From Fibrobacteria bacterium (lineage in GTDB: Bacteria > Fibrobacterota > Fibrobacteria > UBA11236), in the NCBI GenBank assembly GCA_043732185.1, contig JAYTHY010000088.1:3410-67409 (forward strand): a stretch of 64,000 nucleotides of DNA, given 5' to 3'. Positions within the stretch are counted from its first letter, which is position 1. Each line of letters begins with the position of its first letter. The notes beneath the pieces are model-generated. The model was not told where the DNA came from, did no database searches, and worked only from the letters and a program-made list of their open reading frames with translations. The position numbers and the translations under genes were made by a program. Positions 1,912 through 63,914 of this stretch are shown here, piece by piece.

Positions 1912-2790
1912 TTGAATTTGCGAAACGTATCGGGTGTAGGAACAGACTCATGCCCTATGAGAATTTCCCATCTGTTCTTATTCCTCTTAGCCCTCAGTTT
2001 TCCGGTCTCTCCACTTGGCGCTCCAATCTCTACATCGTGGGAGAAGTGGGCCGCGTATCAGGACTCAAGTCAAAAGCAGCTGAACTATGGCCCATGGAAG
2101 GTTTTTCTTGCAACTTACCTTGACACAACCTCCAAAGACCAGATAAATCGACTCCGATATGGCAAAGTATCGAAACGGGATCGGGCTGTTTTGGAATCCT
2201 TTCTTGAGGTATTGCAAGGAGAGACAATACGTACTTTGAACAGGCAGGAGCAAAAAGCCTTTTGGATGAATCTATACAATGCGATGACGGTTGCCGTGGT
2301 TCTTCGGGCCTATCCCATCGGCAGCATTCGCGAGATCGAACTTCCCAACAGCGTATCCAAAGCTGGTCCATGGGATGCTAAAATCATGCGCGTCGAAGGC
2401 GTCGAACTCTCACTCAATGATATCGAACATCAAATTTTGCGACCCCTTTGGAAAGACAATCGGGTCCATTTCGCTTTGAATTGCGCCAGCCTGGGTTGCC
2501 CCAATCTGGCTCCTGTTCCCTTCACAGCAGCGAACTCGCAAGCCTTACTGAATAGAGGCACCAAATATTTTATTCAATCTGAACGCGGTTCTTCTTTTGA
2601 CGGCAAGACTCTGGTCCTCTCCAGTATTTTCGATTGGTACAAGGAAGATTTTGGATCCGATCGCGACAAGGTGGTCGAATTCATCTCCCTATATTCCGAT
2701 CCTGTGATTCGGAAAAAGCTTGAGGATTTCAAAGGTGGAATGAAGTACCAGTATGATTGGAAGCTGAACGATGCCGTGCCTCGGCCCTGA
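1912..2790 (+). CDS. DUF547 domain-containing protein (exported?)
   Basis: TTG start 7 nt after AGGAGG (1899-1904). A hydrophobic segment LFLFLLALSFPVSPLG is present. The FWMNLYNA...DIEH..LRP...D.RVHFALNCASLGCPNL blocks are characteristic of DUF547. Confidence 0.8.
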   Translation: MNLRNVSGVGTDSCPMRISHLFLFLLALSFPVSPLGAPISTSWEKWAAYQDSSQKQLNYGPWKVFLATYLDTTSKDQINRLRYGKVSKRDRAVLESFLEVLQGETIRTLNRQEQKAFWMNLYNAMTVAVVLRAYPIGSIREIELPNSVSKAGPWDAKIMRVEGVELSLNDIEHQILRPLWKDNRVHFALNCASLGCPNLAPVPFTAANSQALLNRGTKYFIQSERGSSFDGKTLVLSSIFDWYKEDFGSDRDKVVEFISLYSDPVIRKKLEDFKGGMKYQYDWKLNDAVPRP

Positions 2791-2875
2791 GTAGGTTTGG
2801 GTCCCCGTCCATGGGGATGCGTCGATGTTCGTTTTTTCTTGAAACGTTTCGCTGAATGTCAGAGACTCAGGGAGC

Positions 2876-3703
2876 ATGAATAAAGTTCCGCAATGCTTCC
2901 TATTCCTTTTCGCCGGATTGTTTTCATTCACACGGACCCAGGGTGAAAGCTTTCGAATTTCCGGACTGGCCGTGGGTATTGGAGACTGGATAAACGTCTC
3001 GGACCGGGATTGGAGCACACGGGAGGATTACGGAACCTTGCCTGCAGCCTCCTTGTATTGGGCTGGGTGGGGCTGGAACGGCAGCTTGGGCGTCCCATTG
3101 AAATCCTCATTCAAACGGATTGGGCATAAGACACGCTACTCGCTAGGTGACGGTGAAATATCGGTGGGGAAGCGAATCGGCGCGTGGTCTCCCAGGATGT
3201 CCCTGAAATTCCCTGCCTATGATTGGTCCGTGGCGCATCCGGGAGTGAACGAACTGTATATCGGAAGTGGCACCTGGGATTTGGCTGTAGGGTTGGGCGG
3301 ACGCATTCCAAATAGCTTTCTCTCCAAGCGGCTTACCCTTCAATTCGACATCGAGGGGTCCACGGTTCTGGCGACCGGATTGGCTGACTACGGTTCGTAC
3401 AAAGGCCTTGGTGCCTTCCAGGCTTCGTATGCTTTGGGCAGCCGTTGGAAGGCAGGGATGACCACACTCTTTCTTTTCGATCACTGGATCTGGATCCCGA
3501 ATTATTGGGATCAGGAGGGAGAAACCAAATTTTCCATTGTACCCGGAGCCGTCGTAGGAGTCAGGATTTTCCAATCCACCTATTTGGATGCTAAAGCCGG
3601 TTGGGGCTTGTATGAATACAAGAAGTTGATCCGTCCAAAGTATGCGACTCTAAGCCAGGACTCATATCACTTCGGCATCTCCATTTATCAAGCTTTCAAA
3701 TGA
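2876..3703 (+). CDS. hypothetical exported protein, possibly an outer-membrane beta-barrel
   Basis: 275 aa with an N-terminal signal-like sequence (CFLFLFAGLFSFTRTQG). Alternating aromatic/Gly-rich strand-like segments run throughout. No recognisable catalytic motif. The 3' end overlaps the convergent DUF2063 gene by 42 nt. Confidence 0.5.
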   Translation: MNKVPQCFLFLFAGLFSFTRTQGESFRISGLAVGIGDWINVSDRDWSTREDYGTLPAASLYWAGWGWNGSLGVPLKSSFKRIGHKTRYSLGDGEISVGKRIGAWSPRMSLKFPAYDWSVAHPGVNELYIGSGTWDLAVGLGGRIPNSFLSKRLTLQFDIEGSTVLATGLADYGSYKGLGAFQASYALGSRWKAGMTTLFLFDHWIWIPNYWDQEGETKFSIVPGAVVGVRIFQSTYLDAKAGWGLYEYKKLIRPKYATLSQDSYHFGISIYQAFK

Positions 3704-4486
3704 AGGCTGCTCGAACCATTTTAGGCGCGTCCAGGTTTCGAACCAAGAGGGAATCTTGGACATCAAAGAGTTTACCTCCGGGGAATCAAGATTTTCGGCC
3801 ACAGCTTCACATGCCAAACCCAGGGGCTGGCCCGCGCGTAGCCTGTTCAACAGGTGGAATGGAATCGGATCCAGTTCTTTCCACTCTACATCATTCCCAT
3901 TTCTAAAAACCGCCCAATAACCCTTCCTGTCCAGGACAATCGGAACTTCATTCTTTTTTTCCTCCAAGGCCGTGCGGCATTCCATCAGGTTCCAGTCCTC
4001 TTCCAGCAGGGAAAAACATGGCTGAAAAACCAGGGAAGTGTCGGCCAGTATTTCCAATTCTCGTGGGGAGAGTTTGCTCGGGTCCAAGGGGAAAACAACA
4101 GGTGCATGAAAGGCATTCAGCATGGCTATTTCCAGGGCAGCGATTTGTATGAGTTGGGGTGTATTGTAAATCACACTGGTTTTTAAAAATTCCACGAACC
4201 CATTGGGCAAGTTTTGGAGATAGGGCGAGCGGGAAGGATGCTGATCCAGAAAGGCCGTTGCAAGTTGATTGAATTTCCAAAGGCCCATGGTCCCGGCCAG
4301 CAGGGGAAAATCCTGTTGGAGAACTGTCATTAGGCGATACCAATATTGCTCATTGTATACCACTAGTCGATCTATTCTGGATTGGAATCGGCCGGTGGAA
4401 AAGGAGAATGGCGTTCGGATCAATTTACCGAATTGTTCCTGGATTAGAACCAGTTCGAGTGGTGGGATCCTTTTTTCCATTTTCAA
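3662..4486 (-). CDS. DUF2063-family protein (MNIO partner, BufC/HvfC-like)
   Basis: 274-aa ORF directly abutting the DUF692 gene. The track start is a TTG at 4486 that overlaps the upstream TGA. An alternative ATG at 4480 lies 2 nt after that stop. Size and position match the DUF2063 partner found next to DUF692 enzymes. The family call is by context plus general sequence character. Confidence 0.65.
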   Translation of the reverse strand: MKMEKRIPPLELVLIQEQFGKLIRTPFSFSTGRFQSRIDRLVVYNEQYWYRLMTVLQQDFPLLAGTMGLWKFNQLATAFLDQHPSRSPYLQNLPNGFVEFLKTSVIYNTPQLIQIAALEIAMLNAFHAPVVFPLDPSKLSPRELEILADTSLVFQPCFSLLEEDWNLMECRTALEEKKNEVPIVLDRKGYWAVFRNGNDVEWKELDPIPFHLLNRLRAGQPLGLACEAVAENLDSPEVNSLMSKIPSWFETWTRLKWFEQPSFESLINGDAEVI

Positions 4487-5304
4487 CAGGCCACCTGGTA
4501 GTCGCGGGCCCGCAGCGCTTCGGCATGCAGCTCTGGAAATGGGGGGATTTTATCATCCCGTTCCAGCAAGGTCGGAAATCCGCCGGAAATATTCCATGCA
4601 TGTCCATACAATTCCCAAACCTCGCGGCGCACTTTTTCCTCATGGGTGTCGAGGAGGGTGCCATCCTGTTTTTCAGTGTGACCGGCGATATGGCATTGTA
4701 AAACTTTGTCCCAGCGAATGGAATCCAGATACCTTCGGGCGTCAAACCCATGATTCACGGAAGAGACGAATACGTTATTGATATCCAGCATGTACCCACA
4801 TCCGGAAAGTTCCACCACTCGATTGTAAAAATCCGATTCTTCCATTTCGCTTTCCTTGAAGCTCGCGTAACTCGATAGATTCTCCAATCCGAAAGGAATG
4901 CCGATGAAATCCTGAACTTCGGAAATCCGTTCTGCTATGTACCGCGCATTTTCCTCCGTGTACGGTACAGGAAGGAGGTCGTGGTGATGGATTCCATGGG
5001 TGGAAGTCCAGCAAAGGTGATCGGTGAAATATGGTGTTGCAGTCATTACGGTGAGAGCTTTCAAACGATCCAAATAGGAATAATCCAAAGGATCAGTTGA
5101 AGCGATGCCCAAGCTGACACCGTGGAGCACGACAGGATAGGTGGAAAGAATTCGCTCAAGATTCCGTTTTGGAAGCGGCGCATCGCCCATGAAGTTTTCC
5201 GATACAATTTCGAAAAATTCCACTTTCGGCCATTCGGAAAAGATGTGGCGGTAATGCGGCAATCGCAAGCCTAGTCCTATAGCGTTTCGTGGAATTCTGT
5301 TCAT
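4483..5304 (-). CDS. DUF692 / multinuclear non-haem iron oxidase (MNIO, MbnB/TglH/BufB family)
   Basis: The blocks GLGLRLPHYRHI...VEFFEIVSENFM...LHGVSLGIAS...YFTDHLCW...HHDLLPVPYTEE are typical of UPF0276/DUF692. I moved the start to the ATG at 5304. The track start at 5463 would overlap the precursor gene by about 100 nt and read through the 13-bp hairpin. Confidence 0.85.
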   Translation of the reverse strand: MNRIPRNAIGLGLRLPHYRHIFSEWPKVEFFEIVSENFMGDAPLPKRNLERILSTYPVVLHGVSLGIASTDPLDYSYLDRLKALTVMTATPYFTDHLCWTSTHGIHHHDLLPVPYTEENARYIAERISEVQDFIGIPFGLENLSSYASFKESEMEESDFYNRVVELSGCGYMLDINNVFVSSVNHGFDARRYLDSIRWDKVLQCHIAGHTEKQDGTLLDTHEEKVRREVWELYGHAWNISGGFPTLLERDDKIPPFPELHAEALRARDYQVAC

Positions 5305-5318
5305 GGAGTTTTCAATAC

Positions 5319-5360
5319 GGCTCCTCCGCTTTACCGCTATCGGATTTAAGCGGAGGAGCC
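5319..5360 (-). promoter_or_regulatory. perfect 13-bp stem / 16-nt loop intercistronic hairpin between the precursor gene and the MNIO gene
   Basis: GGCTCCTCCGCTT (5319-5331) and AAGCGGAGGAGCC (5348-5360) are exact reverse complements. The hairpin lies 6 nt after the precursor stop (5367-5369) and 14 nt before the MNIO ATG (5304). No strong U-tract follows it on the mRNA. Confidence 0.7.
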
Positions 5361-5366
5361 ATTGGT

Positions 5367-5666
5367 TCAGGACTCGATACAGCTCCCGCCCTTGCAGGCG
5401 GAATGGCCTTTGCACTCGTGTTGCGCAACGCCCTTTCCTTCCTGGTAGCTGTGGCCTTTGCACTCATTCAGGGACTGGCACTCATGGGTCTTGAAGGTGC
5501 CCCCCAATTTGGTACACTCCGTTTGGAAGTCGGCCAGGGTCTTGGCTGCGACGATGCCGTTCATAGTCGCTGGCGCGCTGGAAGTACTGTTTTCGCATGC
5601 CGTAAAAGTAAAGCTGCCAGCCATCATTCCTGCGATGGCGAGACGGGTTAGTGATCGCTTATCCAT
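5367..5666 (-). CDS. exported Cys-rich RiPP precursor candidate (bufferin/DUF2282-like), probable lipoprotein signal
   Basis: 99 aa. AAGGAG (5674-5679, minus strand) sits 7 nt upstream of the ATG. The signal peptide MDKRSLTRLAIAGMMAGSFTFTAC has a relaxed lipobox (FTAC). The C-terminal half carries 6 further Cys and a duplicated ECKGHS motif (NECKGHSYQEGKGVAQHECKGHSACKGGSCIES). It lies immediately upstream of the DUF692 and DUF2063 genes. Confidence 0.75.
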   Translation of the reverse strand: MDKRSLTRLAIAGMMAGSFTFTACENSTSSAPATMNGIVAAKTLADFQTECTKLGGTFKTHECQSLNECKGHSYQEGKGVAQHECKGHSACKGGSCIES

Positions 5667-5759
5667 TCTTAATCTCCTTATCAGGAACCCGGAATTGGGT
5701 TCGCCAATGTGTCTTTGTCGTTACGCAAAATGTTTCAAACAAAATGATCGACTCCTTCA

Positions 5760-6407
5760 TCAAAAAGTATTTTCCATGATCGCCTGCGGAAACTGAGACC
5801 GGATTTTTTCGACGATCAAACATCTGGCTCGATGCAGTCTCACCCGGACCAGGGATTTGGTAATGCCCAGTTCGAGTGAGGTTTCTTCACCGCTGAGTCC
5901 CTCGAAATCCCTGAGGTAATGGACGTCACGGTATTTCCTATCTAATTTTGCCGCGGCAAATTCCACCATCCGCACCAGCTCCAATTGCATGAGGACGCTG
6001 TCAGGCAAGGGATCTTTCGATTCAATATTTTCAAGGACATGGGATTGGGTAGTGGGCGAATTTACCTTACGGTATTTTTCGGCCAACTTGTCGCAAATCT
6101 TATGGTAGGCCAGGGAAAAAATCCAGGTGGACAACTTACACCGGCCTTCGAATCCGGGAAGCCCTCGATGCACGGCAATGTAGGTTTCTTGCAGGATCTC
6201 CTCTACGGCGCATGAGTCTGGAAAATATCGATGCACATAGGAGGACAATGGGGCATAGGTTTGGTTGAAAAGGTGGCTGAATGCTCTTTCGCATCCAGGG
6301 GTCTCGGAGCGCACCTCATTCAGGAAAGATGCCGTATTGATCTCCAGGAAAGGTTCGCTCGGTTCGCGAAATTTTTTCCCGGACGCGAAAGATTTGGGTA
6401 CTACCAC
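5760..6407 (-). CDS. ECF-type RNA polymerase sigma-70 family factor
   Basis: 215 aa. The region 2 block EEILQETYIAVHRGLPGFEGRCKLSTWIFSLAYHKICD and the region 4 block RDFEGLSGEETSLELGITKSLVRVRLHRAR are present. It lies 93 nt upstream of the precursor gene on the same strand. Confidence 0.85.
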   Translation of the reverse strand: MVVPKSFASGKKFREPSEPFLEINTASFLNEVRSETPGCERAFSHLFNQTYAPLSSYVHRYFPDSCAVEEILQETYIAVHRGLPGFEGRCKLSTWIFSLAYHKICDKLAEKYRKVNSPTTQSHVLENIESKDPLPDSVLMQLELVRMVEFAAAKLDRKYRDVHYLRDFEGLSGEETSLELGITKSLVRVRLHRARCLIVEKIRSQFPQAIMENTF

Positions 6408-6437
6408 AAGCTGTTCCTCGGAATTGGATCCGCATCC

Positions 6438-6460
6438 CTATTGAAACTATTGAAACTATC
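6438..6460. repeat. 9-bp tandem direct repeat (CTATTGAAA x2.5) in a divergent intergenic region
   Basis: ctattgaaa at 6438-6446, ctattgaaa at 6447-6455, then a partial copy ctatc. It lies between the ECF sigma start (6407) and the TIGR02147 gene start (6633). Confidence 0.6.
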
Positions 6461-6632
6461 TCAATGCCTTTGCATAAGATATCTTTCATAGAAATGCGAT
6501 TCTTCCATTTCCATGCAATATCCGTATTCAAATGTTAACGGCAGTTCCGACGGCCCTATAGCCTTACCTCCACTTGGCGGTTATACTTATCGGGTGCCTT
6601 CGAACCAAAGGTAGGGACAGGAAAATGCAGTT

Positions 6633-7472
6633 ATGAGTCCTTCTACGGTCGAGCCGGATGTCCTCCATTACTCGGATTACCGGACCTTTCTCCGAGATCT
6701 TTATGATTTCAGAAAGTCCCGGCAACCTTCGTTCTCCTACCGGTATTTTGCCCAAAAGGCTGGCATCGGCAGTCCCAACTACCTGAAGCTGGTCATGGAC
6801 GGAGAGCGAAATCTGACCAAAAAAAGCCTGGTGAAATTCCAATCCGCCTTGGGCCTCAAAAGCAGAAGGGCGGAATTCTTCGAGAATTTGGTATTTTTCA
6901 ACCAGGCTACCACAATTTCGGAGCGGAATATCTACTATGAAAACATCCTCAAGGTGCGCACCCGGTCGGGTCTTAGAAAGCTTGAGGAAAACCAGTTCCA
7001 ATTGTTTACGGACTGGCGACATATCGTGATTCGAGAGATGGTGGCGCTTAAGGGGTTTCGGCCGGATCCCCACTGGATACTTCGGAAGTTAGGCAAGGGA
7101 TTCACAGTGAAGCAGATTGAAGAATCACTGGCTCTCCTTTCCAATATGGGGCTCCTCAAACGGACGGCCAACGGTGTCGCCCAAAGTGACGTCAACATTA
7201 CCACCTCCGATGAAGTACGTTCTCTACTGATCAAGAACTATCACCGGCAGATGATGCAAAAGGCTCTCACCGTGCTGGATACTCTGCCCGCCTCCCAAAG
7301 AGACATTTCCAGCATCACCATCCCAATCCATGCCCGGGATTTCATCAAGGTCAAGGAACTCATCCAGCTTATGCGCAAGGAGTTGTTGAATCTGGGTGCT
7401 GATTCCGGTGAGGGCGGAGAAGTGGTGCATATCAATATTCAGCTTTTCCCTCTGACGGGCATGCAGGATTGA
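6633..7472 (+). CDS. TIGR02147-family protein (Fibrobacter-type paralogous family, HTH-like N-terminus)
   Basis: 279 aa. The N-terminal block YSDYRTFLRDLYDFRKSRQPSFSYRYFAQKAGIGSPNYLKLVMDGERNLT is the hallmark of this family. It is clearly paralogous to the ORF at 63039-63914. Confidence 0.75.
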   Translation: MSPSTVEPDVLHYSDYRTFLRDLYDFRKSRQPSFSYRYFAQKAGIGSPNYLKLVMDGERNLTKKSLVKFQSALGLKSRRAEFFENLVFFNQATTISERNIYYENILKVRTRSGLRKLEENQFQLFTDWRHIVIREMVALKGFRPDPHWILRKLGKGFTVKQIEESLALLSNMGLLKRTANGVAQSDVNITTSDEVRSLLIKNYHRQMMQKALTVLDTLPASQRDISSITIPIHARDFIKVKELIQLMRKELLNLGADSGEGGEVVHINIQLFPLTGMQD

Positions 7473-7473
7473 C

Positions 7474-8184
7474 GTGATGCGTTATCGCTTAGTCTGGATG
7501 CTCTTCGCAGGCCTGCTTTCAGGATGCCTATTCGAAAGGCTGGCCGGGACGGAAGTGGGTAACCCTGAAGTTACCGTTTCCGCCCGTTTCGGATTCATTG
7601 GAGCGGACAGTCTTGCCCTTATCTCCAGTATGGATATGATGGTCATGAAAATGGAATATCGCATGCCCGATAGTTCCCGGGACTCGATCTGGAATTACCC
7701 GGCCGGTATGGAGGTGGATCTGGCTTCACCTGTAACCGCGTTGAACCTGCCATCGGTGAAAGTCGCAAGTGCCGGATGGACTTCCGCAGAGTTGATGCTC
7801 GTTGCCAGCTACGGTGACTCGACGTTACCTGATTCGATAGCCTATAAAGACTATTCCAATCCAAGATTTATAAAGCTCATTAAAAAAATGAACGGGGACT
7901 CGATCCGTTTTCTTTTTGAGCTGCCAGAGGGAATGCATATGAAGCTCCAATTCGATTCGAGCAGGTTGCAAAGGTGGCAAACTGGAAACAAAGTTTCCGT
8001 TGAGATCCTCTTCGACTGTGCAAAATGGACTTCGGCGATTTCCGCTCAAGCCTACCAGATTCGTTTGGATGGGGCGGGGAAGCCCTACGTACTGGTCAGC
8101 CCCAGCGAAAACGTAGGACTCCATACGCTCCTGAAATCCCTGTTTCCGCAGTGCTTCCTAGCGGACGGCGCGCAGTTTATGTGA
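7474..8184 (+). CDS. hypothetical lipoprotein
   Basis: 236 aa. A GTG at 7474 or an ATG at 7477 lies 1-4 nt after the upstream stop. The lipobox is LFAGLLSGC. No recognisable domain. Confidence 0.6.
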   Translation: MMRYRLVWMLFAGLLSGCLFERLAGTEVGNPEVTVSARFGFIGADSLALISSMDMMVMKMEYRMPDSSRDSIWNYPAGMEVDLASPVTALNLPSVKVASAGWTSAELMLVASYGDSTLPDSIAYKDYSNPRFIKLIKKMNGDSIRFLFELPEGMHMKLQFDSSRLQRWQTGNKVSVEILFDCAKWTSAISAQAYQIRLDGAGKPYVLVSPSENVGLHTLLKSLFPQCFLADGAQFM

Positions 8185-9549: not shown

Positions 9550-10721
9550 GCGATACCTGCTTTCACTTCAATCTCATCCATTATACTTATCGCAGCCTGG
9601 CGTGCCCAACTATCCGCGCTAAGTACGTCTTTAATATCCGGATTTTGTTTCACACTGGCTGCGTCAAGGACGGCTGACAGAATCACTGGAATATCGGTGA
9701 AACCAACCTTTTCTTCCAGAAAACGGGCTACAACGGCCTCATTGGCGGCATTGAGGATGGCCGGACCAGTACCTCCCAAATGACCAGCGCGATAGGCCAA
9801 GCCTAAACAAGGGAACTTGTCGAGGTCGGGCGCGAAGAATTCCAGTTTGGCCAGCTTGGCCATGTTCAGTCTTTCCACGTTCAAGGGCCAACGCTCCGGA
9901 TAGGAAAGGGCATACTGAATCGGCAGTTGCATATCCGGGCAGCCAAGTTGCGCCATCAAAGATCCATCTTGGAATTGAACGAAGGAATGAATAATGGATG
10001 TTGGATGAATGGTCACTTTGATTTTAGCGAATTCCACCCCAAACAAATAATGGGCTTCAATGACCTCCAAGCCTTTGTTCATCAGTGTGGCAGAATCAAT
10101 CGTGATTTTTTCGCCCATCACCCAAGTGGGATGTTTTAAGGCGTCGGATTTGCGAATGGATGCGAAGGTATCTTTCGGTCTTTCGCGAAATGGGCCACCG
10201 GAAGCCGTAAGCTCAATGTGTTCGACTTCGGAAATGGGTCGTCCTGCCATACATTGAAAAATCGCGGAATGTTCCGAATCAATGGGAATCAATTGACTGG
10301 CCGGATGGCTTCGCAAAGCTGAATTGATAATTTCGCCCGCCATCACCATGGTCTCTTTATTTGCCAGTCCAACATGTTTGCCCCGGCGGATGGCCTCAAG
10401 AGTCGGCTGGCAACCGATTGCGCCCACCAGCCCGTTGAGGACATAATCCACTTCGGTTAGGGAAACCAGTTCCAATAATCCGTCCATTCCCTCCAAAACT
10501 CTAATCGAAGTCTTCTGGCGCATTCGCGCAGCCGCATCCGCATCAAAGACACAGACAATCTTGATTTTGAATTCGTCGATGATGGGCAATAACTTTTCCC
10601 ATTGCCGCCCAACCGCCACACCTACCAACCGGAAGCGGTCGGGATGCTGGCGGAAAACCTTGAGGGCATTCATACCAATGGAACCGGTAGCGCCCAGCAA
10701 GGCGATATTCTTCTTATGCAT
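9546..10721 (-). CDS. dxr: 1-deoxy-D-xylulose-5-phosphate reductoisomerase
   Basis: LLGATGSIGMNAL NADPH-binding motif, PIDSEHSAIFQC and LTASGGPFR blocks. Confidence 0.95.
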   Translation of the reverse strand: MHKKNIALLGATGSIGMNALKVFRQHPDRFRLVGVAVGRQWEKLLPIIDEFKIKIVCVFDADAAARMRQKTSIRVLEGMDGLLELVSLTEVDYVLNGLVGAIGCQPTLEAIRRGKHVGLANKETMVMAGEIINSALRSHPASQLIPIDSEHSAIFQCMAGRPISEVEHIELTASGGPFRERPKDTFASIRKSDALKHPTWVMGEKITIDSATLMNKGLEVIEAHYLFGVEFAKIKVTIHPTSIIHSFVQFQDGSLMAQLGCPDMQLPIQYALSYPERWPLNVERLNMAKLAKLEFFAPDLDKFPCLGLAYRAGHLGGTGPAILNAANEAVVARFLEEKVGFTDIPVILSAVLDAASVKQNPDIKDVLSADSWARQAAISIMDEIEVKAGIA

Positions 10722-60209: not shown

Positions 60210-61312
60210 TTGCGTCTTGCCTCGGTGGATTCGGTGGTAGAAGGGAATAGATTCCATCTAAAAAGGTCCGGGAGAAAACGGCGACCAAGTACATCGACAC
60301 CGTTGGTTTTTTTAATGGGATGAGGAAACTCGGAGCTGATCCGTACCACTGTACTGATGCGCATGCGTCCGGGGATTTTAAGTTGGATCGAATACAAGCC
60401 CCCGTCCCCGGTCATATACAGGATTGTATTAGCGGGTCCTCCGAACACACAGTTGTCGGCATTGCCTGTGGCTCCGGATCTTTTATCATACATACCGCTG
60501 GCAAAACTCAATCGGATGAATCCTAAGGAATCCCCGTTGGCGTTGAATACTTGGACCTCCCCTTTTTGATAGCTGGCGACATAATGGTTGCCATGGGAAT
60601 CGAGTGTTCCCCCATCAGGCACGGGCATGCGCGCGAAGACGGTGGGGCTGATTAGAGCGCCTTTGGCTCCGATAGAAAATCGGGTAACCTGGCCAGCCGA
60701 AGTGGCTTGGTTTACAAAGACGGCAGAAGTCTCATCCATCCACTCAATGCCATTTGCAGAGGCCAATCCGGTTGCAGCCACGGAAAGTTGGCGCGTGGGG
60801 CTCAGAAAATAAACGTCCGTACCCAAAGCGGTGAAATAAATTCCGCCATTGGATCCGATAGTCAAATCGTTGGCTTGATTGAAGGATACGCCATTCTGTC
60901 CTGATGCCACCAAAATGGAATCCAACGCGCCCGTCGCTGTAAAGCGTGCGATCCGGCCATCTTCGGCGGCTACCAGCCGGCCTTGGAAATCGAACTCCAA
61001 ACCATTGTTCTGCCTTGTCGTTACAAAGTGTATTCCCGTATCTGCCGTACCGGGACGGATTTTCCAAATGGGCCAATTGGCTCCGCCAGCTTGCTCGGTG
61101 AAATAAACAAAGCCGGTGGAAGCTTCATATGCTGGTCCTTCACAGTATTGAGGAACCTTTTTTTCCCAAACCACGGGCGTATTGGCTGTGCAGATGGAAT
61201 CGGGTAATGCAACGGTATAATTTTGCGCAAAAGGCGCAGCCAGTGGTAATAGGGCCAGGGCTGTCAGCCATTTCAGCGGAGAGCGTAGAGATTTCCGTGA
61301 AGCGAATTTCAA
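60206..61312 (-). CDS. SMP-30/gluconolactonase/LRE-like beta-propeller protein (exported)
   Basis: Signal peptide ...ALALLPLAAPFAQ. Propeller blocks CEGPAYEASTGFVYFTE, NGLEFDFQGRLV, ANDLTIGSNGGIYFT and SANGIEW. The start overlaps the upstream gene stop by 4 nt. The stop overlaps the convergent purM stop. Confidence 0.75.
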   Translation of the reverse strand: MKFASRKSLRSPLKWLTALALLPLAAPFAQNYTVALPDSICTANTPVVWEKKVPQYCEGPAYEASTGFVYFTEQAGGANWPIWKIRPGTADTGIHFVTTRQNNGLEFDFQGRLVAAEDGRIARFTATGALDSILVASGQNGVSFNQANDLTIGSNGGIYFTALGTDVYFLSPTRQLSVAATGLASANGIEWMDETSAVFVNQATSAGQVTRFSIGAKGALISPTVFARMPVPDGGTLDSHGNHYVASYQKGEVQVFNANGDSLGFIRLSFASGMYDKRSGATGNADNCVFGGPANTILYMTGDGGLYSIQLKIPGRMRISTVVRISSEFPHPIKKTNGVDVLGRRFLPDLFRWNLFPSTTESTEARRN

Positions 61313-63042
61313 AATGCTGCCTTTTTTATCAAGATCTTTCTGTCCCCCAACTTATTTAAATAGCTCATCCTAACCGAGCTTGGGGATTGAATACCCAGAA
61401 AAACCCTCACCTCATCCATTTCCCCATCGAAATACTGACTAGCGGGTTCGGGATTCCAGGATTTCAAGCTACCTTGCCCTATTCTCCAATACCCGGTGTA
61501 TTGGTAGGGGTGCAAGCTTCCTTCCACGTGGGCCATGCGTAAACCATCGATATACAAGTTCAACCCTGACAACGTCATTCCGGCGACGACATTGTGCCAG
61601 TTGCCGTCATTGAGGGCACCGGCAGAAGCCACGGTCCAGAAAATGGGATTGCCGTCTGCGCCTCTAGGTAACCATTGCCAGGTCCCAAAATGAATGAGTC
61701 CCGCGTTGTCCATCCAGATGTGTCTATCATAATCACCTGCGTCACCAGTCGGATTGGTGTGGAATCCAATCAGCTTGCCACCCTGGGTTGTTATTGTTCT
61801 GAACCAAAGTGAAAGCGAAAGGGTGTCAGGAGCTGCCATGGGTTTACTGGTCGTAACGAATCTAGTTCCACCCAAACGAATGGCTTGTGCAATAGGCGCA
61901 GAAGTGGTATCCCAGCCCACGGGGGCATTCTGAAGGATGCCGCCATTGCCCATACTGGAAGCATCAGATAAACCCGCTGCCAGGTTTCCACTCGTGGGCT
62001 GGAAATGCCAAACGCCTCGATAACCGGAAAGAGAATCAAATACTAGGGCCCCATTGGAACGGCTTAAGGCTCCGGGCCTACCCCAATGCACATGCAGTGT
62101 CTGTTGATCATTTCCTGCTTGTAGAGAATCCATGCGTACCCAAATCATGGCCCGGCCCAAGGACGCACTCCAATATTCAATTTCAAAATCAAGATGGGTT
62201 CCATCAGCGGCAGAGAAACGCAAGTCAGAACCGTCTGGTGCCGCAGTAGCAAAAGAAAAATTTGTCGAGTCCAGTAGTACCACAAAAGGAAAGTCTGATA
62301 GGCCTTCCAACAAGCCAGCGCCGAGGGGGCCCGTGCGGACCGTCAGGGTTTTCTCATGCGCCCATGTAGCATAATCCCCATCATCTACCGTGGCCATATC
62401 GATTATTGGGAGCTGCACCGTGTCCTTGGAAAGCACGGAAATACCATATACATCGTGTGGAGAACAATTGGTTTGGCAGCTGGAGCGCAAGGTGTAATTG
62501 CCTTCCGCCAATCCCTCTAGACGAAAGCTTCCATCAAGGTTGGTGCGCCAAACCCGGTCTAAACCATAAATGCGAATCAGACCGGCTGAGTCGGTGCCGG
62601 TGGGGAAACGCAAGGTACCCTGGATGCTACCGCCAGGTTTGGTCACCGTAAGCGGCAGATCCATTTTTTTCTGCGTAGGGTCCGATTGGAAGCGGCGCAA
62701 GGCTACGTCTCCATTGGCAACCCGGATTTCGGTGGTATAGGTTCCGCCAGCTACGGAATCCAATACGAATCGCCCCGCACTGTCAGTTAGGGCTTCATGA
62801 GAGCCCATCAGTGAGCCTGGAGTCGTTGACCCCGGGAGGTAATCGGTAGAACGCAGAATCACCCGGGCCCCGATAACCGGTCTATTTAGGGTATCCACTA
62901 CTTGGCCTGTGACGACGGTTGTCTCAGAACCACTTCCTCCGCCAGCTGTGCGATCCGAGTTAGGGCCGCCGATGAAATTGCAGCCCTGGCAAGTTAGGAG
63001 ACCTGTCATAAGTGCAGCGAGGCTGGTTTGTCGCAATTTCAT
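61309..63042 (-). CDS. lipoprotein with CarboxypepD_reg-like, DUF2341 and LamG (concanavalin-like) domains
   Basis: Lipobox region LMTGLLTCQGC. VTGQVVDTLNRPVIGARVIL...TDSAGRFVLDSV. DUF2341 block DGSDLRFSAADGTHLDFEIEYWSASLGRAMIWVRMDSL...TLHVHWG. LamG-like block GVWHF....DSS..GN.G, then ...NWHNVVAG......LYIDG. Confidence 0.75.
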   Translation of the reverse strand: MKLRQTSLAALMTGLLTCQGCNFIGGPNSDRTAGGGSGSETTVVTGQVVDTLNRPVIGARVILRSTDYLPGSTTPGSLMGSHEALTDSAGRFVLDSVAGGTYTTEIRVANGDVALRRFQSDPTQKKMDLPLTVTKPGGSIQGTLRFPTGTDSAGLIRIYGLDRVWRTNLDGSFRLEGLAEGNYTLRSSCQTNCSPHDVYGISVLSKDTVQLPIIDMATVDDGDYATWAHEKTLTVRTGPLGAGLLEGLSDFPFVVLLDSTNFSFATAAPDGSDLRFSAADGTHLDFEIEYWSASLGRAMIWVRMDSLQAGNDQQTLHVHWGRPGALSRSNGALVFDSLSGYRGVWHFQPTSGNLAAGLSDASSMGNGGILQNAPVGWDTTSAPIAQAIRLGGTRFVTTSKPMAAPDTLSLSLWFRTITTQGGKLIGFHTNPTGDAGDYDRHIWMDNAGLIHFGTWQWLPRGADGNPIFWTVASAGALNDGNWHNVVAGMTLSGLNLYIDGLRMAHVEGSLHPYQYTGYWRIGQGSLKSWNPEPASQYFDGEMDEVRVFLGIQSPSSVRMSYLNKLGDRKILIKKAAF

Positions 63043-63914
63043 AAACCCTGCTCCGGAAGTCGAGTTAATGGAAATATACTGAAATTCAACTGGTAAACGC
63101 TGTCGCTGGCCTCTTCCTGATCGGCCATCTCCAGCAATTCCCGTCTAAGCGTAGCGATTTTAGCCAAGTAGGTCTCATACCGATTTCTGGATATGGACAA
63201 AGTCAAGGTAGAGGTATTTTGCACGTTACCGGGCATCCGGTCCAAGGCTTCCTTGGCCAGGTCAAGCATTTGAATTTTAAATCCATCGATTATGATAGGG
63301 TCGGCGGCGGTTCCGGTAATAAAGTGCTCGGTAAGCTCCAGAGTGCCATCTGCACTCAGTCGGATTAAACCCAGTCGCAACAGCAAAGTTACAGTGCGGC
63401 CGGCCTCGGCTGGAGAGATGGAAGGGACAAGCATGCGTGCCATCTCAGCATACTGGTCTTCCCGAAAGGATCGGGTTTCGAGCAAGGCGCGGATGGCGGA
63501 ATAATACCAATGGGTATAGTACTCGGATTGGGAAGCCTGCAATGCCTGGACACGAAAGCCTTTGGTATTCCTGATCTTTTCCAGATAGAAGCGCTTATCC
63601 TTTCCGCTCTGAGACTGGTTGTGGAATACCAGCATTTCAAAAAATTCTTTTTCTTTTCCGGTAAGCTCAAAGGCCTCGGCGAAGCGCAGCACCATGCGCG
63701 GTGACAAATTGGTCTTACCTTGGAACACTTGAGTCAGGAAGCCTTGCGATTTGAATCCCGCCCGTTTGGCTATGACGCCATAGGTGAGTCGCGGATTCAG
63801 GGATTTTTTATGGGCGTATAAATCCTGTAGAAAGGTACGATAGTTGGTGTAAGAGAAAATATCCAGCATGTGATGTCTTAATAATAAGGTACCCGGTGGG
63901 CGGGGGATGGTCAA
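63039..63914 (-). CDS. TIGR02147-family protein (second paralogue)
   Basis: The block FSYTNYRTFLQDLYAHKKSLNPRLTYGVIAKRAGFKSQGFLTQVFQGKTNLS aligns with the 6633-7472 product. The track start is a TTG at 63914; an ATG at 63869 is equally plausible. The stop overlaps the downstream ATG (ATGA). Confidence 0.75.
   Translation of the reverse strand: MTIPRPPGTLLLRHHMLDIFSYTNYRTFLQDLYAHKKSLNPRLTYGVIAKRAGFKSQGFLTQVFQGKTNLSPRMVLRFAEAFELTGKEKEFFEMLVFHNQSQSGKDKRFYLEKIRNTKGFRVQALQASQSEYYTHWYYSAIRALLETRSFREDQYAEMARMLVPSISPAEAGRTVTLLLRLGLIRLSADGTLELTEHFITGTAADPIIIDGFKIQMLDLAKEALDRMPGNVQNTSTLTLSISRNRYETYLAKIATLRRELLEMADQEEASDSVYQLNFSIFPLTRLPEQGL

Follow-up and report, generated by a model that had tools for sequence, protein, structure and literature searches.

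A probable bufferin-2-like operon with a predicted lipoprotein precursor and a convergent outer-membrane barrel gene in Fibrobacteria

The window analyzed here is a 64,000-nt stretch of DNA from a Fibrobacteria bacterium (GenBank assembly GCA_043732185.1, contig JAYTHY010000088.1), in which four minus-strand genes encode, in order of transcription, an extracytoplasmic function (ECF) sigma factor, a small Cys-rich exported protein (the precursor), a multinuclear non-heme iron oxidase (MNIO) of the DUF692 family, and a DUF2063 (PME1) protein. The original prediction, made from the DNA letters, had described these genes as an ECF-sigma-linked MNIO/DUF2063 operon for a ribosomally made peptide that is modified after translation (RiPP), and all four open reading frames (ORFs) were found in the order and exactly at the positions it gave. 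We propose that the locus probably specifies a bufferin-2-like ("Cys-Lys" captophorin) ribosomal metallophore made as a lipoprotein, in one ECF regulon with the gene for an outer-membrane β-barrel. This last gene lies just outside the limits 3662-6407 that had been given for the full system, and was missed there. The features are collected in Table 1. Related loci are coded L001, L002, and so on, and counts of close loci refer to 11 close Fibrobacteria loci.

Table 1. Genes, candidate regulatory sites, and RNA elements in the 64,000-nt window
Feature	Position	Strand	Remarks
ECF sigma gene	5760..6407	-	215 aa, GTG start, GAGGAA ahead of start
Precursor gene	5367..5666	-	99 aa; signal peptidase II (SPII) signal, linker, ~60-aa core
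MNIO (DUF692) gene	4483..5304	-	273 aa from ATG at 5304; length matches orthologues
DUF2063/PME1 gene	3662..4486 (TTG start) or 3662..4480 (ATG start)	-	
Outer-membrane barrel gene	2876..3703	+	275 aa, signal peptide, 12-strand prediction
Precursor-operon promoter-like motif TGAAAC-N18-GAC	5711..5737	-	ECF-type -35
Barrel promoter-like motif TGAAAC-N18-GAC	2840..2866	+	ends 9 nt before ATG
Third motif copy TGAAAC-N17-GAC	9627-9652	-	in dxr 3' end, ~77 nt before rseP start (9549)
5'-leader hairpin AACCCaattccGGGTT	5686..5701	-	just before AAGGAG ribosome-binding site
Intercistronic stem-loop precursor/MNIO	5317..5362	-	15-bp stem, no U-tract after
Conserved block GCCGTTAACATTTGAATACGGA	6521..6542	-	upstream of sigma gene; differs from target-promoter motif
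Tandem 9-mer ATAGTTTCA ATAGTTTCA ATAG	6438-6459	-	just upstream of sigma start
TIGR02147/DUF4423 + lipoprotein unit, copy 1	6633-7472 and 7474-8184	+	divergent from sigma gene
TIGR02147/DUF4423 + lipoprotein unit, copy 2	63039-63914 and 61309-63042	-	

Read directly from the DNA, the gap between the sigma and precursor genes was 93 nt (5667-5759) and the MNIO stop codon was TGA (4485-4483); between the precursor and MNIO genes there were 62 nt. The TTG start of the DUF2063 gene shares 4 nt with the MNIO gene at this stop, and the ATG start lies 2 nt past it, so the two genes overlap or abut, as had been noted, according to the start chosen. From its sequence, the PME1 gene is taken to be translationally coupled to the MNIO gene, and it followed that gene directly in all 24 loci retrieved by searching with the MNIO. 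Two other ORFs were rejected: a long one at 4483-5463, which would overlap the precursor gene, because the orthologues begin at the ATG equivalent to 5304; and a 54-aa one at 5659-5823, considered as an anti-sigma gene, because it runs, in a different frame, across the end of the sigma gene. Domain scans of the eight genes at 1912-8184 found no DoxX, NrsF, or other anti-sigma domain, in agreement with the earlier remark that the cluster has neither a DoxX nor an anti-sigma gene.

The searches of the two enzyme genes that the original prediction had proposed were both significant. The MNIO matched PF05114 (MbnB_TglH_ChrH) at 325.7 bits (E 2.5e-97), and its best-scoring NCBIfam model was the equivalog BufB (NF050167), at 308.8 bits against a cutoff of 310. 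On this model the Fibrobacteria orthologues scored 295-316 bits and genuine BufB1 and BufB2 proteins 365-401 bits. The HvfB model gave 252.5 bits (cutoff 360), and the ApyH, MbnB, and ChrH models gave 52-76 bits (ChrH 51.8 against a cutoff of 600). Alignment with true BufB showed H61, H96, E141, D174, N177, H205, D219, H221, E248, and D250 to be invariant; from MbnB-type structures, we take these residues to be iron ligands and D250 to be the catalytic Asp. The local sequence E248-R-D250-D251 reads ERDD, as in the true BufB2 encoded beside a true BufA2 in L024; whereas the Lys-Cys-type structure 3BWW, the best PDB sequence match of the MNIO, has ERDF at the same position. The residue after the catalytic Asp is Phe in Lys-Cys (EGKCG) enzymes and Asp in Cys-Lys (BufA2-type) enzymes (Gadgil et al. 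2026, PMC13097082, section 14). Because Asp, not Phe, follows the catalytic Asp here, we assigned the MNIO to the Cys-Lys type. The DUF2063 protein matched PF09836 at 60 bits (cutoff 27.2) and the NCBIfam HvfC model at 63 bits, below its equivalog cutoff of 142; its C-terminal RiPP recognition element-like domain gave a weak NGO1945_C match (18.6 bits, cutoff 27), and a PDB sequence search gave no match. An MNIO and DUF2063 operon of RiPP type, with a Sec-exported Cys-rich precursor, was therefore rightly recognized in the original prediction.

The precursor has seven Cys residues, Cys24 of the lipobox and six in the core (C51, C63, C69, C85, C91, and C96), and all seven were invariant across 25 close homologues; each of these has a length of about 99 aa and comes either from Fibrobacteria or from a metagenome without assignment. 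A K/R-rich n-region and then a hydrophobic stretch lie ahead of Cys24. The lipobox is FTAC (signal MDKRSLTRLAIAGMMAGSFTFTA-C24), and in relatives LALTAC, LTGC, or LSAC; we defined a lipobox as [LVI][ASTVI][GAS]C preceded by an n-region with positive charge and an h-region of hydrophobic residues, and the precursor was scored as having one. The family profile could be aligned to the lipoprotein signal of AcrA as well as to a number of lipoprotein families in NCBIfam, and the AcrA signal peptide was the sole return of a PDB sequence search with this profile. Because the invariant Cys24 closes a canonical lipobox, the precursor product is predicted to be a lipoprotein, and probably is one; the signal peptide noted earlier thus directs Sec export but is of the lipoprotein (SPII) kind, not a plain one. 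Lipoprotein signals are predicted in 16% of Buf2 precursors (PMC12452194), and experiments have shown an MNIO RiPP of Bacteroidota to be lipidated (PMC13056109).

The mature precursor consists of a Ser/Thr-rich linker, a helix bearing C51 (FQTECTKLGG), and a Cys-rich region that reads H-E-C63-x5-C69-K-G-H-S ... H-E-C85-K-G-H-S-A-C91-K-G-G-S-C96. It contains three Cys-Lys-Gly motifs, at C69, C85, and C91, and therefore fits the Cys-Lys class. There were no EGKCG repeats in the precursor, only a single EGKG without Cys, and Pfam, PF10048 (DUF2282) included, gave no match for it or for any of 119 relatives. The earlier statement that the precursor fits no published class cleanly was thus borne out in that it fails the DUF2282 and BufA2 models and lacks EGKCG repeats, but its three Cys-Lys-Gly motifs and its Asp-Asp enzyme speak for the Cys-Lys class. 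In 15 of the 16 Fibrobacteria loci with the MNIO operon, the precursor gene was the one directly before the MNIO gene, and it is this strict adjacency, together with the invariant Cys residues, that points to the precursor as the substrate of the MNIO. One distant Fibrobacteria locus (L009, 5311-5939) has two tandem precursor genes, of 98 and 99 aa and both with lipoboxes, for one MNIO gene.

An exhaustive profile search of 1.84 billion representatives returned only 119 relatives of the precursor at E ≤ 1e-3, 21 of them at E ≤ 1e-10; among them were proteins in which the domain is repeated 2-6 times in tandem and GC-rich (myxobacterial-type) fusions to cytochrome c. All 26 precursor homologues matched the BufA2 model (NF050166) weakly (best E-value 7e-5), as did 30 of the 119 relatives (best E-value 1.6e-14); the true BufA2 from L024 scored 94.5 bits, and true BufA2-type proteins carry precomputed PF10048 matches. 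The precursor family is thus a small one, of Fibrobacteria and Myxococcota, that lies below the BufA2 and DUF2282 thresholds. The nearest MNIOs from outside the Fibrobacteria, at 52-55% identity, were from Sorangium (L011-L022), where they come after lipoproteins of more than 300 aa that have an EF-hand-like stretch, one copy of the precursor's six-Cys domain, and a cytochrome c domain at the C-terminus (e.g., L011 4887-5942). When the precursor core was compared with 78 true BufA2 proteins by HHalign, 30 columns were aligned at 89.5% probability, with C63, C69, C85, and C91 paired with BufA2 CysI, II, IV, and V. BufA2 and DUF2282 proteins carry the "C-x3-GG" helix at the C-terminus, with its Cys disulfide-bonded to CysI (PMC11626156); in the precursor this order is reversed, and the CxxxGG Cys helix precedes the Cys-rich core. 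Moving the helix to the C-terminus in silico extended the alignment to 46 columns, including the CxxxGG motif, at 91.6% probability. The precursor may conceivably be a circular permutation of the bufferin domain, which we treat as a lead because the gain in HHalign score was small.

The barrel gene converges with the DUF2063 gene; the two share 42 nt at their 3' ends, and no terminator-like site separates them. Because of this arrangement the 3' end of the barrel transcript would, if both are co-induced, be antisense to that of the operon transcript. An AlphaFold2 model made with 13 homologues was all-beta (pLDDT 75.9), and Foldseek against the PDB returned the 12-strand FapF (5O65) and the COG4313 channel (4RL8) at E ~1e-6 and TM scores of 0.57-0.67. 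We predict from this model that the product is a signal-peptide-bearing, 12-strand outer-membrane β-barrel. It resembles FapF and the COG4313 (Pput2725) barrels in predicted fold and size, but differs from them in sequence (7-12% identity); neither it nor any of the 13 homologues has a Pfam family, and no fap or hydrocarbon-degradation genes lie near it in the window. The alignment contained no invariant His, Met, or Cys, and therefore no obvious metal site. The barrel gene adjoined the operon in 9 of the 11 close loci and in two distant ones, L006, where it is convergent, and L007 (65% MNIO identity), where it is co-directional and comes directly before the precursor gene. All barrel homologues whose context was looked up adjoined an MNIO operon except that of L037 (3502-7481, metagenome-assembled genome [MAG] GFS_8554). 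There the rseP, sigma (90% identical), barrel (90%), and DUF547 genes were present, and neither the operon of precursor, MNIO, and DUF2063 genes nor the pair of DUF4423 and lipoprotein genes was, a clean presence/absence polymorphism.

The regions upstream of the precursor and barrel genes share a promoter-like motif. In the close loci the DNA upstream of the precursor gene consists of TTTxTGAAAC, 17-18 unconserved bases, GAC(A), a small hairpin, and a ribosome-binding site; the motif was in the same place in the window/L001, L002, L003, L005, L027, L028, L029, and L030, whether or not the sigma gene was adjacent, and as the variant GGAAAC-N17-GAC in L025/L026. Upstream of the barrel gene, TGAAAC-N17/18-GAC(T) was found in the window, L001, L003, L028, L029, L030, L037, and L039, and in variant form in L004 and L027, and both genes were preceded by the motif in six or more genomes. 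In a census of 261 kb of Fibrobacteria loci there were 21 matches, compared with 3.4 ± 1.8 (maximum 10) in shuffled sequences, and 8 of these preceded precursor genes and 7 barrel genes. As the whole window held only three copies, two of them exactly before the operon and the barrel gene, the motif is not a general promoter element; a general scan for sigma-70 promoters and terminators gave fewer sites than expected by chance. Since the same motif precedes both, we conclude from the DNA that the operon and the barrel gene are likely to be co-regulated as one regulon, and we infer that an ECF sigma factor reads TGAAAC-N17/18-GAC promoters. The promoters of Bacillus subtilis SigW and SigX are TGAAAC-N16-CGTA and TGTAAC-N17-CGAC, respectively. 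The third copy in the window, in dxr, was kept in L001 and L037, but these are near-identical to each other or to the window, and about one match per window is expected, so it is possibly due to chance. The rseP gene, before which it lies, encodes the site-2 protease that activates ECF sigma factors in other bacteria.

The sigma factor scored 36.7 bits for Sigma70_r2 and 39.4 bits for Sigma70_r4_2, both above cutoff, and 79.7 bits for TIGR02937; the orthologue alignment showed that its family shares an N-terminal extension with the motif DPFxEINxxxFL. A search with the single protein gave only near-identical orthologues, and an alignment query reached further ones. In the window/L001, L003, L025/26, and L028 the sigma gene was directly upstream of the precursor gene and always beside the divergent DUF4423 + lipoprotein pair. 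Orthologues of 36-38% identity occurred near the system elsewhere: upstream of the barrel gene in L030, about 3 kb from it in L039, and directly upstream of another precursor-MNIO-DUF2063 operon in L041. In these three loci the sigma gene was followed by a small zf-HC2 anti-sigma gene (PF13490, 29.7 bits for L030), and in L039 a copy of the motif also preceded the sigma gene, at a distance of 182 nt, as would be the case for an ECF factor that controls its own gene. The same sigma/zf-HC2 pair, again with a sigma factor of 36-38% identity, was present in L040 with no operon within its 10.6 kb. In L042 the sigma gene was followed only by a C-terminal remnant of the DUF2063 gene. For the characterized systems, SigF/NrsF control has been described for buf1 and buf2 of Caulobacter (PMC11626156), and sigma and NrsF genes have been reported in Buf1 but not Buf2 clusters (PMC12452194). 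ECF control of the Cupriavidus gig operon, as given in the original prediction, was not upheld: RpoQ dependence "could not be demonstrated" (PMC13492112), and Caulobacter SigF/NrsF is the firm precedent. On the sequence evidence, we regard the link of the sigma factor to this regulon as likely.

Upstream of the sigma gene itself there is a different conserved block, GCCGTTAACATTTGAATACGGA, which was invariant in the window, L001, L003, L025, and L028. Its consensus, GTTAAC-N4-GWATAC, contains two hexamer palindromes (GTTAAC and GWATAC), and it was found 60-130 nt upstream of every sigma gene of the family, including those of L030, L037, L038, and L039, whether or not a DUF4423 gene was divergent. 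In the anti-sigma-linked cases, L030 and L039, the block had the related form GTTAA(C)...TTGTATAC. It is probably an operator or an unusual promoter. The tandem 9-mer just upstream of the sigma start reads on the plus strand as TTGAAAC twice, toward the DUF4423 gene, and had no counterpart outside the window except an imperfect one in L001.

Two RNA hairpins accompany the precursor gene. The 5'-leader stem was kept with two-sided changes in L005 (CCCCCgtttGGGGG), L027, and L029. The stem-loop between the precursor and MNIO genes had a folding energy of -32.5 kcal/mol (z = -6.9), and its stem was kept in seven loci with compensatory changes at four of eight pairs. An Rfam search of 2500-7000 gave no family for either hairpin. 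Hairpins after RiPP precursor genes usually raise the ratio of precursor to enzyme transcript, and by analogy the intercistronic stem-loop is likely to be an mRNA-stability or attenuation element that sets this ratio.

The analysis itself showed which genes are present, that the catalytic residues are conserved, that the precursor has a lipobox, and that the gene order is kept and the motif shared; the chemistry, the lipidation, the metal, and the sigma dependence in the following proposal are inferred. The MNIO-PME1 pair would bind the 99-aa precursor in the cytoplasm and, with O2 and its multi-iron site, oxidize three or four of the six core Cys residues to 5-thiooxazoles, with a loss of 4 Da each. 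The strongest candidates for modification are the CKG cysteines C69, C85, and C91; C96 is possible, its fate being uncertain, and C51 on the N-terminal helix is probably disulfide-bonded to C63. In Buf2, the four central Cys residues each lose 4 Da and CysI forms a disulfide with CysVI (PMC11626156). After modification the precursor would be exported by Sec, diacylglycerylated at Cys24, and cut by signal peptidase II, and would then sit anchored in a membrane, where its thiooxazole-thiolates would chelate a thiophilic metal, by precedent copper. The operon and the barrel gene would be expressed from two promoters with the same motif as parts of one stress regulon, most likely driven by the ECF sigma factor encoded next to the operon or by one of its close paralogues, and the hairpin after the precursor gene would probably keep the precursor transcript in excess over those of the enzymes.

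A number of results weigh against this proposal. With respect to regulation, the sigma gene was absent from the operon side in L002, L004, L005, L027, L029, and the P0033 contig, so that the description "ECF-sigma-linked" holds for the 5 of the 11 close loci in which the sigma gene adjoins the operon and not for the other 6. The sigma gene of the window has no anti-sigma partner (NrsF, zf-HC2, or other) in the cluster, and the target motif was absent upstream of it and of its orthologues, with L039 as the sole exception; because both are missing, there is no sign that the window sigma factor is autoregulated. The barrel does not depend on the RiPP, because L037 keeps the sigma and barrel genes without the operon. 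With respect to the product, the precursor scored 16.7 bits on the BufA2 model, for which the curated cutoff is 60, and because its Cys topology differs from that of BufA2, the choice of modification sites may also differ. The AlphaFold2 model of the precursor (pLDDT 56.8), with a helix at residues 44-53, is too weak for placing disulfides, and Foldseek of this model against the PDB gave nothing below E = 2. Finally, there were no pointers to copper in the window.

In a first alternative, the locus would be an ordinary periplasmic copper-buffering bufferin operon, with the sigma and barrel genes as neighbors unrelated except by ancestry and the motif as a general promoter element. Bufferin clusters are defined by the trio of precursor, MNIO, and PME1 (PMC12452194), 6 of the 11 close loci have no sigma gene and 2 have no barrel gene next to the operon, and the census found no motif in the distant Fibrobacteria loci L006-L010. 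We nevertheless consider this explanation unlikely, since the positions of the motif copies in the window are not those of a general element, the linkage of barrel and operon survives the rearrangement seen in L007, and in L030 and L039/L002 the barrel gene, in its turn, has a sigma orthologue on its side.

The question of the metal gives rise to a second alternative. Copper would be the ligand by analogy, as the characterized relatives are all copper-responsive (PMC11626156, PMC13097082). L039 (1-6546) and L002 overlap by exactly 127 nt and are from one MAG, cluster1_bin.300, and the same chromosome. Joined, they gave the order ECF sigma, zf-HC2 anti-sigma, arsS (425.6 bits for TIGR04167), an arsM-like gene beside it, barrel, and a convergent DUF2063-MNIO-precursor operon, with the motif before the sigma, arsM-like, barrel, and precursor genes. 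In L027 the motif also preceded a DUF2064 gene whose best match was TIGR04282, a family named for arsenosugar glycosyltransferases, with 88 bits and thus under the cutoff of 134. Zinc-finger anti-sigma factors are classically thiol or redox sensors (RsrA). The regulon might then answer arsenic, another thiophilic metalloid, or thiol stress, with the lipidated protein and the barrel handling it at the envelope. We judge this to be rather improbable: one clear genome and one sub-threshold hint among about 14 are a thin lead for a metalloid or thiol-stress role, the window has neither ars genes near the cluster nor a zf-HC2 gene, and the characterized relatives respond to copper. A broader form of the same idea, in which the locus would be one arm of an undescribed Fibrobacteria envelope stress regulon comprising the DPFxEINxxxFL sigma factor, an RsrA-like anti-sigma factor in some lineages, a lipid-anchored, circularly permuted bufferin-like thiooxazole protein, the FapF-like barrel, and, in some genomes, genes for arsenic methylation and arsenosugars, all from TGAAAC-N17/18-GAC promoters and with a thiophilic metalloid, for example As(III), in place of copper as the ligand, seems to us similarly improbable; in such a regulon the barrel may expose the lipoprotein at the surface or conduct its ligand, in the place of DoxX.

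That the MNIO makes a different modification, or that the 99-aa lipoprotein is not its substrate, is very unlikely: MNIOs are chemically diverse (PMC12452194), and the precursor family lies below the BufA2 threshold with a Cys spacing unlike that of BufA2, but the enzyme is nearest to BufB and far from ApyH, MbnB, and ChrH, all MNIO-PME1 enzymes have so far been assigned to 5-thiooxazole formation (PMC13097082), and precursor and MNIO genes are strictly adjacent with the Cys residues invariant.

A bufferin-2-like lipoprotein can be set against the known systems as follows. Like bufferin 2 (BufA2B2C2) of Caulobacter vibrioides, the locus has the order precursor-MNIO-DUF2063/PME1 without DoxX, six core Cys residues with Cys-Lys-Gly motifs, Asp after the catalytic Asp, a Sec-type signal, and, in SigF, a precedent for ECF control. 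It differs from bufferin 2 in that the CysIII position is lost, there is a new C-terminal Cys, and the CxxxGG helix comes before the Cys-rich strands; in the sub-threshold BufA2 score and the SPII lipobox; and in its occurrence in Fibrobacterota with a sigma factor without NrsF and an apparently co-regulated barrel. Bufferin 1 and gig-type clusters (DUF2282 precursor, DoxX, and often ECF sigma and NrsF) share the MNIO-PME1 pair and an adjoining ECF sigma gene; the window cluster is without DUF2282 precursor, DoxX, and NrsF, and its precursor has six core Cys residues rather than the four of bufferin 1. In the oxazolin/HvfABC and fontiphorin systems (EGKCG, "Lys-Cys"), an MNIO and PME1 likewise act on an exported Cys-rich precursor, and 5-thiooxazoles would be expected in both cases; however, the window precursor lacks EGKCG and its enzyme has ERDD, not ERDF, and falls short of the HvfB cutoff. 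The lipidated MNIO RiPPs of Bacteroidota (DybA/chryseobasin-like) resemble the locus in having a lipobox, a predicted MNIO step in the cytoplasm followed by the Lgt/LspA/Lnt route, and a host in the Fibrobacteres-Chlorobi-Bacteroidetes (FCB) group, but their products are short peptides, whereas that of the window would be a folded domain of about 75 aa, and as the window enzyme is not ChrH-like, a macrocycle or hydantoin is not expected.

The MNIO-PME1 class has been surveyed at more than 20,000 loci and is among the most widespread of RiPP systems, and the general picture of these systems is unchanged by the locus. Knowledge of bufferins and captophorins comes almost entirely from Pseudomonadota and soluble periplasmic products. 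What is new here is a precursor that is predicted to be a lipoprotein and whose family is small, scores below threshold, and seems to be rearranged, together with the absence of DoxX, the co-regulated barrel, and the ECF regulon motif. The locus is thus a compact, well-delimited example with a predicted membrane-anchored product and a precursor apparently rearranged relative to BufA2. If our proposal is true, it would broaden what is known of the substrate rules for Cys-Lys-type MNIOs, provide the first candidate outer-membrane partner for a bufferin, and offer a simple ECF regulon (sigma factor, motif, and two or three targets) whose inducing signal is maybe not copper.

The source of the DNA had been taken to be Fibrobacterota-like, and this was supported by the 95-99% identity of the locus proteins to those of a Fibrobacteria MAG (JAYSRH010000421) and by the divergent neighbor of the sigma gene, a TIGR02147 "Fsuc_second" protein (268 bits). 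MNIO enzymes require O2. Because the MNIO operon is present, the environmental Fibrobacteria, of which the closest MAGs are labelled GFS, presumably live with oxygen, unlike the rumen genus, in which Fibrobacter succinogenes has zero MNIO, DUF2063, or bufferin genes (Table S4, PMC12452194). The source lineage is an uncultured, apparently oxygen-using branch of the Fibrobacteria. The remaining genes of the window are housekeeping genes, among them rseP, dxr, cdsA, uppS, frr, pyrH, tsf, and rpsB. A recurring two-gene unit, in which a TIGR02147/DUF4423 helix-turn-helix gene is followed by a gene for a lipoprotein without known domain, was present in the window in two copies, the first of which accompanies the sigma gene in the window/L001, L003, L025, L028, L038, and L042.

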